A stretch of 64,000 bases of DNA from Escherichia phage UB. How positions within the stretch are numbered: the stretch's first letter is position 1; each line of letters opens with the position of its first letter. The DNA is taken from the sequence record MH383160, one strand, 5' to 3'. This document shows positions 1-8,222 of this stretch, in pieces. The position numbers and the translations under genes are program-made. Under the pieces are notes generated by a model. It did no database searches and had not been told where the DNA came from. It saw only the letters and a list, made by a program, of their open reading frames with translations.

Positions 1-836
1 CTACTCTTGGGTGGACCGATATAACTGCCAGTATGGGTCCGGTTGCGGTGGATAGCATCGATGCATTATATTGCACAGATGGTATGATGCATATTAAAAC
101 TTCAGATGGTTCTTTATATGCATATGGTCGTAACATGAACGCAAACAGTGGTGTTACTGGTGGTGTTATTAGTGTTGCAACTAAGGTTAATTTGCCTTCT
201 GCTGTAAATGACATGCGATATACGTTTAGTTATGGTTCAGTACTATGTCGATTGGATACGACTTCTATATACGCATGGGGACGAAACACAAATGGTGAAT
301 TAGGCCAGGGTAATACAACAGCTATCGTTACCCCAAAACTATTGTCTGGTGCTTCTATTGCAATGGGTACTTCGTATAATGCTACTGCAATTGTTTCTGG
401 TTCTGCATCGTTAGTTACGTGTGGTGGTCAGAACAGTGGTCAGTTGGGTAATGGTATTACTACTGATGGTAATGTTTACGTATATGCTGCTAGAACATAC
501 CCAGGCGATCTTAATACTATAAGAAGTCCAGTGGATTGTAGTACAACGTACACCTCTGCATTTATGAGTCCAGATGGTATATATTACACTGGTGCTAACC
601 GAAGCATGTTTGGTGGTATTAGTGGTGCTGCTACCGTTGGTGTATATACTAAATGTAGTGATTTACCAATAACATATTCTAATATAATTCAGTGGGGTAG
701 TGGTACTATTGGTGGTGCTATATGTAGTAGTACAGAGTTATACCAATGTGGCATCGGTCGATACATTGCTGGCGATGGTGCGAGCACAACCAGGTATGGA
801 TTTAGGAAGACACCATTACCTTGGGATGTTTATTGA
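1..836 (+). CDS. RCC1-like repeat (beta-propeller) protein, paralog array member; 5' end runs off window
   Basis: Frame open from window edge to stop at 836; RCC1-type glycine motifs (YAWGRNTNGELGQG, GGQNSGQLGNG). Confidence 0.6.
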   Translation, partial: TLGWTDITASMGPVAVDSIDALYCTDGMMHIKTSDGSLYAYGRNMNANSGVTGGVISVATKVNLPSAVNDMRYTFSYGSVLCRLDTTSIYAWGRNTNGELGQGNTTAIVTPKLLSGASIAMGTSYNATAIVSGSASLVTCGGQNSGQLGNGITTDGNVYVYAARTYPGDLNTIRSPVDCSTTYTSAFMSPDGIYYTGANRSMFGGISGAATVGVYTKCSDLPITYSNIIQWGSGTIGGAICSSTELYQCGIGRYIAGDGASTTRYGFRKTPLPWDVY

Positions 837-842
837 AATTAT

Positions 843-870
843 GCCAGTACTTTGTACTGGCTTTTCTTTT
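843..870 (+). terminator. intrinsic terminator (hairpin GCCAGTAC..GTACTGGC + T-run)
   Basis: Inverted repeat followed by TTTTCTTTTT; same cassette repeated at 3298, 5729, 7005. Confidence 0.6.
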
Positions 871-907
871 TGTATTAAATATAGTATAATGAATAAAGGA
901 GGGAAGT

Positions 908-2083
908 ATGTTACCTTTTGCAAGAATGGTTAAGTACGGGAATAGAGTTCCAGCACCTTCAGGTGTTATGAAGATAAGTACATCTCATGTACATATGGGT
1001 ATGTTATTCGATACAGGCAATTTATATCTACGTGGATTAGGTACACAGTACAGGTTAGGAAATGATAGTACTGCGACACTACAAAATGGGTGGGTCAAGT
1101 GTCCATATAAAGTTTCTGATGTTTGGTGCTTCTTCGCAGCGACAATTATACTTACGACTGATGGAGAATTTTACTTAGCTGGTCAAATGGGTTATGTCGG
1201 TGTCTCTGCATCACCAGTTCCTGGATGGACTAATATCACATCTTTATTGTCTACAATACCAGCACTTACTACAGTGGTAGATATAGCTTCTACTGAAACT
1301 ACCGAATCAAATGGTTCGTTATTGATTTTGTTAAGTAATGGGGACTTATATGGTATTGGGCGTAATACAGGAGGTGTATTGGGTGTTACTGGTATACAAA
1401 CAACGCCGATTCAGATTGCTACTGGAGTTAGTATGATTGCGGGAACACCGTCAGGTGAGGCTTTCCATTATGTCAAAAATAATCAATACTACAGATGTGG
1501 GAATAACGCAAGTTACAACTTAGGGTCAAGTTCTTCTAAACTTTCTACATTTACGGTAAGTACTGATATATCGGGAACAGTTATTGGTATTTCATGTACT
1601 ACATTAACGACTTCAGTACTTACATCTAATAATGGTAATATTAGAGTATATAATGCTGGCAGAAACACTGATTATTGTTTAGGAATAGGGTATGGAGACA
1701 CTAAGACTATAATGAGTCCATTTAGTATGACTCCAGCAATTGTTGGTATCACACCAGATGCTAATTCAATGAATAACCACTGTTTGAATTATTCTTTAAT
1801 GGCAATGACACAGAATGGTAAGCTTTATACATGTGGTAGTGGTGTTGCTCTTGGTTGGCCTGTTTCTATTGAATCAGAAAGATCTTATTATCACCAGGTA
1901 CAATATGAGGATATGGATATTGCACCAGATGTTAATGCATTTTCAGCACAAGGGGGTTCCGGTGTGTTATACGCATTAGTGGGGACAAATGAGGTGTACT
2001 GGTGTGGTAGTGGTTCTATGTTCCAGGAACAGAGTGCAGGTACACGACAAGTTAAAATGAAGAAAATGATTTTACCGGAATAG
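908..2083 (+). CDS. RCC1-like repeat protein, MLPFARMVKYGN paralog
   Basis: ATG preceded by AAAGGAGGG; conserved N-terminus MLPFARMVKYGN; repeated G-x-N-x-x-G-x-L-G motifs. Confidence 0.8.
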   Translation: MLPFARMVKYGNRVPAPSGVMKISTSHVHMGMLFDTGNLYLRGLGTQYRLGNDSTATLQNGWVKCPYKVSDVWCFFAATIILTTDGEFYLAGQMGYVGVSASPVPGWTNITSLLSTIPALTTVVDIASTETTESNGSLLILLSNGDLYGIGRNTGGVLGVTGIQTTPIQIATGVSMIAGTPSGEAFHYVKNNQYYRCGNNASYNLGSSSSKLSTFTVSTDISGTVIGISCTTLTTSVLTSNNGNIRVYNAGRNTDYCLGIGYGDTKTIMSPFSMTPAIVGITPDANSMNNHCLNYSLMAMTQNGKLYTCGSGVALGWPVSIESERSYYHQVQYEDMDIAPDVNAFSAQGGSGVLYALVGTNEVYWCGSGSMFQEQSAGTRQVKMKKMILPE

Positions 2084-2092
2084 GAGGAAAAT

Positions 2093-6998: not shown

Positions 6999-7004
6999 AA
7001 TAAA

Positions 7005-7031
7005 GCCAGTATTTTGTACTGGCATTTTTTT
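7005..7031 (+). terminator. intrinsic terminator
   Basis: GCCAGTATTTTGTACTGGC + ATTTTTTT. Confidence 0.6.
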
Positions 7032-7069
7032 GTCCTAAATATAATAACGATTTACATTTGGAGGATACA

Positions 7070-7294
7070 ATGCTACCCTTTGGAAGAATTATCACATCAT
7101 CAAAAAAGAACATACAACCTTCTGTTACAAAAATAGCTTCATCTGATACAACAGTTTTTGCCCTTATGTCAGATGGTACGTTGTACAGTAGAGGCTCTCA
7201 AGAGTTTGGGCAAATGGGTATAGGTAATATTATAACACAAACCAAATGGGTTTTGTGCAATACAAACGTAGAAGATCTATGGGTTCGGGTATGA
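7070..7294 (+). CDS. RCC1-like paralog, N-terminal fragment (MLPFGRII...), ends at UGA with body continuing in +1 frame
   Basis: ATG at 7070 after GGAGGATACA; the listed 7058 start is a TTG; protein stops after DLWVRV where paralogs continue. Confidence 0.6.
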   Translation: MLPFGRIITSSKKNIQPSVTKIASSDTTVFALMSDGTLYSRGSQEFGQMGIGNIITQTKWVLCNTNVEDLWVRV

Positions 7295-7325
7295 GTCAAC
7301 ATTAATTAAAAAGAAAGATAATACG

Positions 7326-8222
7326 ATGTGGTATGCTGGAAATGGTGCATCATTCGGTTTATCAACTGATAAGTCAACAACGTGGGCTTCTGCAAAGATA
7401 GTGTTTGATAGAATAACAGCACTTGGAAAAACAATAAAACAAATTGCAGTTAGTGCAGGTGCATTAAGCGTATTATGTACAGACAACACGATATGGAATA
7501 CGGGTTATGGTAGTTATGGACAACTGGGAAATGGTAGAAGTACCGATTCACTTTCATCATTTGTACAAGGAACAGTACCTACTGGAGTAACACCATCCAA
7601 AATACTGGCAAATTTTCTTATGCAAGGATTTATTGGAACCGATGGGAGATTGTATTATACTGGTGCAATATCAGGCGTAGGTACAACCGACATGACGTTA
7701 TATTCAAAGTACACGTTATGTTCTCAAATAACTAATACCTATACGGTGAAAGATTATACAACAAACTCAAGTTACTTCGCTTTTGCTATAGCAAGTAATA
7801 ATAGTACTAATAAATTATTTGCATATCATGGTGGTGGACAATACTTTGGTCAGTTAGCAAATGGTTCTACATCACAAACATATATTTCGTTAAGACAAAC
7901 AACACAAGCACCAGGTGATATAATAAGAAGCAGTGTGGGTTATTCATATTTTTCTAATCATATTATAACTTCATTAGGTGTTTACGCAACTGGTTATAAC
8001 ACAGGCGATAACGCAGGTCAATTGGGTATAGGTACACAAACAGATGTGTCGGCCTATACCAAATGTGTACTACCAATAGAGATGAATATGAATAACGTAT
8101 ATGTTACAGCAACTTTATACAGAACTTACTTAACCGATGGTATACAAATTTACAGTACTGGACAAAATATTACAGATGGCGGTATTGCCAGTACTGTATT
8201 TGTCAAAGATTCACCATTTTAG
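7326..8222 (+). CDS. RCC1-like paralog, C-terminal portion (frame open from 7272)
   Basis: RCC1 motifs (YGSYGQLGNGRS); aligns to the paralog body downstream of the break. Confidence 0.6.
   Translation: MWYAGNGASFGLSTDKSTTWASAKIVFDRITALGKTIKQIAVSAGALSVLCTDNTIWNTGYGSYGQLGNGRSTDSLSSFVQGTVPTGVTPSKILANFLMQGFIGTDGRLYYTGAISGVGTTDMTLYSKYTLCSQITNTYTVKDYTTNSSYFAFAIASNNSTNKLFAYHGGGQYFGQLANGSTSQTYISLRQTTQAPGDIIRSSVGYSYFSNHIITSLGVYATGYNTGDNAGQLGIGTQTDVSAYTKCVLPIEMNMNNVYVTATLYRTYLTDGIQIYSTGQNITDGGIASTVFVKDSPF

Follow-up and report, generated by a model that had tools for sequence, protein, structure and literature searches.

The question raised by the first 8,222 positions of the stretch analysed here, a window of 64,000 nucleotides from Escherichia phage UB (MH383160), is why a series of strongly diverged proteins should begin with the same twelve residues. 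Positions 1-8222 hold seven consecutive RCC1-like genes, all on the plus strand and numbered g1 to g7 in order (Table 1), and the phage group is Asteriusvirus (121Q/PBECO4/phAPEC6). In GenBank, the array genes carry the product names "regulator of chromosome condensation" or "DNA condensation protein". From the sequence alone, the first-pass annotation had taken the conserved N-terminus for a targeting or recognition signal. Comparison with related phages supports that view well and points, somewhat less firmly, to a tag that would direct its bearers into or onto the virus particle, probably to the outside.

In g2 to g7 the N-terminus reads MLPF(A/G/P)R(M/L/I)(V/L/I)KY(G/A)N, with g7 diverging past residue 8. 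As judged by mean pairwise identity among 15 paralog types of the phage group, residues 1-12 are 84% identical and the remainder 22%, and the best 12-column window outside the tag reaches 38.5%. A near-identical dodecapeptide on six genes with strongly diverged bodies, as first described, is thus what the wider comparison shows. The consensus is M-L-P-F-x-R-[MIL]-[VILM]-x-Y-G-N, in which position 5 varies freely (A, G, V, T, P, R or S), whereas conservation extends to M1, P3, F/I4, hydrophobicity at residue 7, Y10, G/A11 and N12. All array genes of JP4, 121Q and phAPEC6 carry the tag, and within 121Q the strict pattern occurs in array genes only. In IMG/VR, the strict pattern matched 121Q alone, and a looser pattern also gave chance matches in unrelated contigs.

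Outside Asteriusvirus, the tag was found in at least five other genera, with members including GAP32 (tags MLPFSRIIQYGN and MLPFARIFRYGD), CBB (6/6 array genes), Yersinia phage fHe-Yen9-04 (MLPFPVIVKYGN), Erwinia phage Kaldavass (eight genes), Serratia phage BF and Xanthomonas phage XaC1 (MFPIPIISKYGN). The codons vary by group: Asteriusvirus encodes Pro3 by CCT and the others by CCA, Gly11 is encoded by all four codons, and Tyr10 by TAC or TAT. Tagged genes in the other genera are joined by a ribosome-binding site (RBS) and lack the terminator/promoter cassette that precedes part of the UB genes; in the window itself, g3 and g5 have an RBS alone upstream and keep the tag. Because other genera retain it with altered codons and with no cassette, the tag is, on this comparison, a peptide under selection and not a scar of duplication. 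An identity due solely to a duplicated 5' segment, with no conservation in relatives, is contradicted by its presence in related genera.

The same peptide heads bodies of several kinds. The 121Q protein gp243, a glycine-rich array member of 245 aa without RCC1 similarity, has the same tag and cassette, and has a counterpart in JP4 and phAPEC6. The syntenic array of CBB consists of Kelch propellers and LamG/ConA-like proteins only, all of them tagged (CBB_548-554). GAP32 gp002 is tagged, ConA-like and assigned to phrog_6011 "virion structural protein"; Kaldavass encodes a tagged RCC1+Kelch fusion, and IMG/VR contigs of 350-380 kb contain further tagged families. Sequence comparison therewith shows a modular tag heading unrelated virion proteins. 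Conversely, the same bodies occur behind another tag. The Vequintavirinae phages UPEC06 and LTH01 have 3-4 tandem RCC1 paralogs, all beginning MLEM[LM]NLG, and homologues of the ConA-like GAP32 gp002 that are virion proteins start with MEEMLLVG (4MG), MNEMLMLG (PBES02) or MLESMLAG (Serratia jumbo phage PCH45). Two body families, RCC1 and ConA-like, hence carry one tag in one virus lineage and another tag in another lineage, as would be expected if the tag were an address evolving together with a virion partner specific to each lineage. That the tag is retained in several genera, heads unrelated bodies and occurs where the cassette is missing agrees with the targeting or recognition signal first proposed, and, as far as sequence can tell, there is good support for reading it as a targeting tag on propellers that have diverged. 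In the stretch viewed, the UPEC06 and LTH01 arrays are distant from any annotated tail-fibre gene.

The bodies themselves were assessed by profile search and structure prediction. Pfam WD40_RLD matched all seven genes (E 1e-9 to 4e-27), but all matches were under the 150-bit gathering score. For PF00415 RCC1 (cutoff 21.7 bits), g1, g2, g3 and g6 were above and g4, g5 and g7 slightly below; matches of array proteins to the profile phrog_4219 had E values of 3e-77 and 7e-107. The AlphaFold2 model, made for g2 alone from 17 sequences, has a predicted local distance difference test score (pLDDT) of 82.8 and a predicted template-modelling score (pTM) of 0.86. Searched against the PDB with Foldseek, it matched UVR8 (E 6e-21, template-modelling score (TM) 0.75) and also HERC1 RLD3 and RCC1; because of these matches, the RCC1-type seven-bladed propeller is confirmed at the level of the model. 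Profile search, structure prediction and Foldseek all agree with the fold claimed at the outset, RCC1 matches and a propeller both having been found. The propeller begins at about residue 20. Residues 1-19 are all outside it, with a short helix at residues 4-11 and a pLDDT of 61 for residues 1-10. The isoelectric points (pI) of the bodies are 5.7-9.0, Ser+Thr+Asn make up 26-32%, K+R and D+E are about balanced, and a basic tail is lacking. The 150 best matches of a profile search comprised 142 giant multi-RCC1 proteins and 8 family members of ~390 aa, and in other phages RCC1 propellers were found within long proteins annotated as tail fibres. No demonstrated function of phage RCC1 proteins was found in the literature searched.

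Several of these proteins are known from virions. Eleven RCC1-like proteins were counted in phAPEC6, and eight of them (gp003, 005, 006, 007, 009, 010, 549 and 551) were detected in virions by mass spectrometry (PMC7247149); clustering at 65% identity makes gp005, gp006, gp007 and gp010 the orthologues of g1, g2, g4 and g5. GAP32 gp001, CBB_551 and CBB_552 are likewise virion proteins by mass spectrometry, and the same paper lists multi-copy RCC1-like homologues of 121Q and PBECO4 (PMC5259590). The first-pass remark that RCC1 arrays are not a standard phage module was therefore mistaken for this group, in which they are standard, annotated and discussed (PMC5259590, PMC7247149). The array and its association with virions are already known. 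Within limited searches of the phage literature, no mention was found of the N-terminal tag, the cassette or the frameshifts described below, and neither the tag system nor the shuffling by way of the cassettes nor the CGG frameshifts appear to have been described.

We infer that the tag is the signal for incorporation. In the mechanism proposed, it would act as a lineage-specific virion-incorporation signal of Rak2-like jumbo phages, and a late-expressed protein with the tag at its extreme N-terminus, followed by a short proline-rich linker, would be built into the particle. The bodies would be interchangeable low-charge binding scaffolds rich in Ser/Thr/Asn/Gly, of RCC1 type here and, in relatives, Kelch propellers, ConA/LamG-like jelly rolls or glycine-rich proteins. 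Every gene or RBS-coupled pair would form its own transcription unit, with a terminator hairpin, TAAATA and TATAAT, and a strong Shine-Dalgarno sequence (SD), and the ~100 bp of near-identical cassette and tag codons would provide homology for unequal recombination, by which paralogs could be added, deleted and swapped between phages. Docking on the outside, much as secondary receptor-binding proteins dock by short peptides, would be favoured over packaging inside the head. The external position is preferred because of the lectin/adhesin-like folds, the pI range and Ser+Thr+Asn content given above, the RCC1 propellers in proteins annotated as tail fibres and the precedent of docking peptides. 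In 121Q and phAPEC6, long fibres occur on the capsid and sheath, with a fibre-anchoring protein at every hexamer centre, and these could serve as docking sites. On balance, a modest preference is given to a virion-incorporation tag whose bearers are probably external.

Other explanations of the conserved N-terminus give it a different role or none. If it had no function as a peptide, the 5' end would be kept as nucleotides, for translation initiation, or be a by-product of gene conversion or duplication of the cassette. Within Asteriusvirus the first 36 nt are nearly invariant, synonymous sites included, and are contiguous with the near-identical non-coding cassette, and the tag codons have been used as a crossover site (see below); taken within this genus alone, the near-invariance could be caused by gene conversion. 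However, the peptide is spelled with different codons in the other genera, it is kept where the cassette is missing, g3 and g5 included, and position 5 varies while Y10 and N12 are held, so that this explanation is largely refuted and very improbable. The peptide might otherwise be an integral element of the propeller, such as a ring-closing strand, as the N- and C-terminal strands share a blade in many propellers. In the g2 model, the ring is closed by strands 20-25 and 381-386, with the tag outside, and the same peptide occurs on non-propeller proteins; a purely structural role is unlikely as judged by the model, and the integral strand is scarcely credible. As to the product names, RCC1-type regulators would act on the condensation of phage or host DNA in the cell, and what speaks for this are the family names (Pfam, PHROG) and GenBank names only. 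The RCC1 name derives from the eukaryotic guanine-nucleotide exchange factor of Ran (RanGEF); to our knowledge, bacteria have no Ran, and the host has neither Ran nor histones. Near-neutral proteins with few charged residues and no basic DNA-binding tail, detected in phAPEC6 virions and sharing their tag with Kelch and lectin-like proteins, do not fit such a role, which is highly improbable, and the label "DNA condensation" has no support beyond the family name.

The main rival is a place inside the head. The tag would then be a T4-like capsid-targeting sequence that binds the scaffolding core, and the propellers, forming the inner body or serving as mobile internal proteins, would be packed in the head and enter the host by injection along with the DNA; they could be tight-binding inhibitors of host defence proteins or organisers of the 350-kb genome. 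T4 internal proteins share the anatomy of a conserved extreme N-terminus of ~10 residues on diverse bodies (PMC3012670). By our own reading, T4 MKTYQEFIAE and MLPFARMVKY both have an aromatic residue 4 and hydrophobic residues 7-8, and residues 4-11 are helical in the g2 model. Furthermore, 121Q and phAPEC6 have an inner body, for which the phAPEC6 authors speculatively named the RCC1-like proteins as candidates (PMC7247149). Against this, the tag is not followed by a conserved Glu or (L/I)xE site: Glu is missing from the first 30 residues of g2 and g3 and from the first ~25-30 of type A, and a T4-type protease site was rejected in this sequence test for inconsistency of the pattern. Rigid, near-neutral propellers of 40 kDa and lectin-like folds are not basic DNA binders, and the same folds are found in proteins annotated as tail fibres elsewhere. 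Packaging inside the head is considered rather unlikely. External docking, the preferred reading, also has evidence to contend with. The step from tag to incorporation is hypothetical, as is a partner protein, and whole-virion mass spectrometry gives no location and may include co-purifying proteins. The inner body and the cleaved T4 gp23-type capsid protein of 121Q and phAPEC6 leave ample room for a T4-like internal route. The MLPF tag was looked for in the tail spikes of RaK2 and was absent: the fibre and spike N-termini in the stretch 17765-40683 are MxNxLIQPKGSxS (gp526, 527, 529 and 530) and MSLSNLSSSN-like (gp531-534), and the known branching system of the wider group is therefore not the partner of the tag. 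CBB has whiskers yet no RCC1 genes, and hence the propellers are not themselves the hairs. Finally, the array is no more mosaic than its flank, with megablast coverage of 18-91% as compared with 35-93% for the neighbouring 8.3 kb, and the idea of an exceptionally variable array was dropped.

The closest experimentally grounded analogue of the tag is, by analogy, the docking peptide of secondary receptor-binding proteins. In K1-5/K1E/SP6 these peptides have 7 and 11 residues, in KP32/KP34-like phages they read MALxxLV, and they are required for incorporation by experiment (Latka et al. 2019, PMC6872550; 2026, PMC13352976). Both systems place a short (7-12 aa), hydrophobic, group-specific sequence at the extreme N-terminus of interchangeable, divergent virion proteins, encoded by neighbouring genes with conserved regulatory DNA between them. 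The bodies here are non-enzymatic propellers or lectin-like folds, whereas those of the secondary receptor-binding proteins are trimeric beta-helix depolymerases; there are 12-13 copies per genome here and 1-4 there; and the T4gp10-like branching partner belongs to that system, whereas RaK2 tail spikes use peptides other than MLPF. The RaK2 peptides illustrate the repeated use of short N-terminal docking peptides in the wider phage group. No tail-fibre genes occur within the window.

Likeness to the T4 internal proteins IPI, IPII and IPIII lies in the ~10-residue conserved N-terminus on unrelated, polymorphic, virion-associated proteins, in the T4-type head genes, 121Q having a cleaved capsid protein of the T4 gp23 family, and in a conserved 5' coding sequence that can serve as a recombination handle. 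The array proteins differ in having no protease motif after the tag and in their rigid beta-rich bodies of 25-45 kDa, which are not small and charged; for the array proteins, location inside the head and injection are hypothetical. The PeSL cassettes of T4-type phages (PMC2839356, PMC4122927) resemble the UB cassette as repeated terminator and promoter motifs between variable genes that act as crossover points for modular shuffling. In the UB cassette, however, the hairpin precedes the promoter, which it overlaps in PeSL, the promoter motif is late-type TAAATA and not early sigma-70, the repeat extends through the RBS into 36 nt of coding sequence, and the genes encode virion proteins. Sequence repeats and predicted fold (TM 0.75 to both UVR8 and HERC1 RLD3) relate the bodies to the RCC1-like domain (RLD) propellers of RCC1, UVR8, HERC1/2 and RPGR and to BLIP-II, from which they differ as single-domain, N-terminally tagged virion components encoded by tandem paralogs, with no Ran or chromatin context in the bacterial host.

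If the tag is an incorporation signal, the many genes that are annotated "DNA condensation / RCC1" in Asteriusvirus and related jumbo phages would encode accessory virion proteins, and a misleading annotation in dozens of genomes would be corrected. With its 12 residues, it would also offer a handle by which foreign proteins could be loaded into or onto a very large capsid, and would point to binding of host or environment, or to injected effectors, as an unrecognised layer that varies between near-identical therapeutic phages. A wider picture is put forward tentatively, in which lineage-specific address tags of large myoviruses (MLPFxRxxxYGN in the Rak2-like phages, MxEMLxLG in Vequintavirinae and the Serratia jumbo phage) form a general plug-in system that loads exchangeable binding domains of eukaryote-like kind (RCC1, Kelch, ConA/LamG) into or onto the virion, the tag repeat shuffles this repertoire, and two of its members are dosed by a programmed +1 frameshift at CGG, possibly with the phage tRNA-Gly(UCC).

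The cassette between the genes was also examined. A 26-nt core, AAATATAGTATAATGAATAAAGGAGG, is present in exactly three copies, at 877, 3331 and 5762, as compared with 0.00 expected in shuffles. The order of elements is a terminator hairpin (GCCAGTA...TACTGGC with a T-run, four in all), TAAATA about 27 nt ahead of the ATG, TATAAT and AAGGAGG. Four genes had been said to have a near-identical cassette; the repeated expression cassette is real and three copies are near-identical, but the fourth is degenerate. A scan for sigma-70 promoters gave no enrichment (46 found, 46.9 expected), and the TATAAT of the cassette has no -35 element; for both reasons, sigma-70 promoters in the cassette were rejected. 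In CBB and GAP32, ATAAATA occurs upstream of structural genes and was likened by the authors to the T4 late promoter (PMC5259590). The cassette TAAATA is the core of this motif. Late expression of the array may be inferred because its TAAATA matches the structural-gene motif and because a lone structural gene elsewhere in the window also has ATAAATA upstream. That gene (41646-42800), the sole other plus-strand gene of the window and isolated among minus-strand genes, matches PHROG 10468 "virion structural protein" (E 8e-184) and, weakly, an Ig-like domain. It is preceded by ATAAATACGTTATAAT...GGAGGG, resembling the promoter and RBS of the array, and has no MLPF tag.

Megablast of positions 1-8300 retrieved 35 phages of the 121Q/PBECO4/phAPEC6 group, with JP4 at the top (91% coverage, 95% identity). 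When paralogs are assigned to lettered types, which are clusters at 65% identity, the array of UB reads ..A B J C E K D in the window, as compared with F G O H L I A B J C E K D in JP4, F M G P H I F A B* C N D in 121Q and Q M G R L H I A B C N E D in phAPEC6; g1 clusters with JP4 11694, 121Q gp241 and phAPEC6 gp005. The four arrays keep a common order, interrupted by insertions, deletions and replacements, and together comprise at least 18 types. The g4-g5 junction corresponds to the C-N-cassette-E segment of phAPEC6 minus type N and the cassette, and the parentage switches within the RBS and the first ~11 nt of the tag codons. At this one junction, sequence comparison therefore shows the tag-coding repeat as a crossover site, and one indel junction at a cassette, as in PeSL, is thereby resolved (type N and cassette deleted between two tag/RBS repeats).

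Between orthologues, omega (the ratio of nonsynonymous to synonymous substitution rates) is 0.08-0.28, which indicates purifying selection; no gene-wide positive selection was found between them and it was rejected as an explanation. The suggested diversification of a binding surface is supported only indirectly, by the strong divergence of the paralogs. For types A and B, some alleles show a synonymous divergence (dS) of 0.4-0.8 between genomes otherwise ~95% identical, which indicates old alleles under exchange.

All seven consecutive plus-strand RCC1-type genes of ~390 aa initially described are present, but g4 and g7 are not simple open reading frames (ORFs) and need a +1 frameshift, which the first-pass annotation had overlooked. 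In g4 the shift site is TCA CGG A (4139-4145, in ...TCA CGG ACA...), with a 0-frame stop at 4169-4171, and the +1 frame GGA CAA TTA GGA (GQLG) runs on to 4541. At least nine near-identical genomes have the extra base as well, as do alleles of 81% identity from WPEC3, Turkey5 and one metagenome (there GTG CGG ACA), and the vB_Ec-M-J counterpart is intact at the site (TAC GGT CAA). Between UB and WPEC3, omega is 0.205 downstream and 0.218 upstream of the shift, and downstream of it WPEC3 and Turkey5 differ by eight synonymous changes and one nonsynonymous; the wrong frames gave omega values of 1.44 and 0.86, with 4-15 stops. In g7 the site is GTT CGG G (7283-7289), in TGG GTT CGG GTA TGA, with a 0-frame stop at 7292-7294 and a +1 frame of GGG TAT GAG.... 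As compared with PBECO4 (same length, 44 differences, GTG CGG G), the +1 frame downstream has 34 synonymous and 6 nonsynonymous changes (pN/pS, the corresponding ratio per site, 0.05; wrong frames 1.29 and 1.33), and, read in the +1 frame, the two changes that lie between the shift site and the annotated ATG at 7326 are both synonymous. Deletion of g7 has progressed to varying extents in JP4, phAPEC6, SP27, G17 and the Salmonella SD phages, and the importance of the gene therefore varies.

Both shift sites place CGG directly 5' of a GGA or GGG glycine codon. CGG is rare: it occurs once in the 2427 codons of the array genes counted (the g4 site, the g7 segment being left out of the count) and at 0.4 per 1000 codons elsewhere in the window. 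The downstream frames of g4 and g7 are under strong purifying selection in divergent phages, and the two genes are candidates for programmed +1 ribosomal frameshifting and not pseudogenes. The predicted trans-frame peptides contain ...VGSQNSGQLGNGVLSNTNK and ...EDLWVGYESTLIK; the virion peptides of phAPEC6 gp007 fit the truncated and full-length products alike. A +1 shift at rare CGG_A directly 5' of GGA is described from glass-sponge mitochondria (Atkins et al. 2016, PMC5009743). The phage sites resemble this Ty3-type shifting in the very rare CGG (here CGG_A and CGG_G), the extra base 5' of GGA/GGG and the lack of a slippery P-site codon, and differ in being in late genes of an E. coli phage, where the frameshift is predicted from sequence. 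They offer a directly testable case of rare-codon +1 recoding in late genes of an E. coli phage, and such "pseudogenes" should not be discarded in annotation. A split type-B paralog of 121Q (121Q stretch 14913-16092) was rejected as a third CGG frameshift; as compared with phAPEC6 and the window, it is divided by a tandem duplication of the 4 nt GGAT (ggatggat to ggatggatggat), which is an ordinary mutation or an error of sequencing. Six tRNA genes lie on the minus strand at 48129-53171: Thr(UGU), Asn(GUU), Met(CAU), Ser (with the unusual anticodon ACU), Arg(UCU) and Gly(UCC). The tRNA-Gly(UCC) reads the +1-frame codons of both shift sites and may be involved in the shift, and tRNA-Arg(UCU) fits AGA, a common Arg codon of the phage.

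Table 1. Genes and cassettes of the tagged array in the window, and RCC1 arrays of two Vequintavirinae phages (positions in the respective stretch).
Feature	Position	Strand	Description
g1	<1-836	+	type A, 3' part; start beyond left window edge; WD40_RLD E 1.8e-14, RCC1 35.7 bits
Cassette 1	837-907	+	hairpin 843-861 and T-run; TAAATA 876-881; TATAAT 885-890; AAGGAGG 896-902
g2	908-2083	+	type B, 391 aa; tag codons 908-943; product matches a phage UB protein at 100% identity
g3	2093-3280	+	type J, 395 aa; RBS-only junction to g2 (2084-2092); tag MLPFARLVKYGN
Cassette 2	3281-3361	+	hairpin 3297-3317; TAAATA 3330-3335; TATAAT 3339-3344; SD 3350-3356
g4	3362-4541	+	type C; 269-aa 0-frame ORF to 4171, remainder in +1 frame; 392 aa with shift
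g5	4552-5721	+	type E, 389 aa; RBS-only junction; tag MLPFGRMLKYGN
Cassette 3	5722-5792	+	hairpin 5729-5747; TAAATA 5761-5766; TATAAT 5770-5775; SD
g6	5793-6998	+	type K, 401 aa; tag MLPFPRMIKYAN
Cassette 4, degenerate	6999-7069	+	hairpin 7005-7023; CCTAAATATAATAACG; GGAGG
g7	7070-8222	+	type D; 74-aa 0-frame ORF to 7294, remainder in +1 frame; 383 aa with shift; degenerate tag MLPFGRIITSSK
UPEC06 RCC1 array	6941-10439		many C-termini ...LPE; amid small hypothetical genes
LTH01 RCC1 array	3441-7459		many C-termini ...LPE; amid small hypothetical genes

The GC skew changes sign at about 8 kb, where the plus-strand island of the array faces a long run of small minus-strand genes. Among these, about eight small tandem paralogous genes (8907-11687, minus strand, 104-141 aa) are convergent with the array, and their products are hydrophobic and membrane-embedded in appearance. 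A tagged array beside paralogs of a "putative membrane protein" is also found in CBB and Kaldavass, and the synteny is therefore conserved across genera. Just past the array, between minus-strand genes, a hairpin with a T-run (8878-8901, ATCCAGTACTTGATAGTACTGGAT) has the stem CCAGTAC/GTACTGG, which is that of the array terminators, and may be a bidirectional terminator. On the other side of the array, outside the window, JP4 (57-4641) and 121Q (1629-5465) have a long tandem run of paralogous genes of ~60 aa on the opposite strand immediately before it (PMC5646251).

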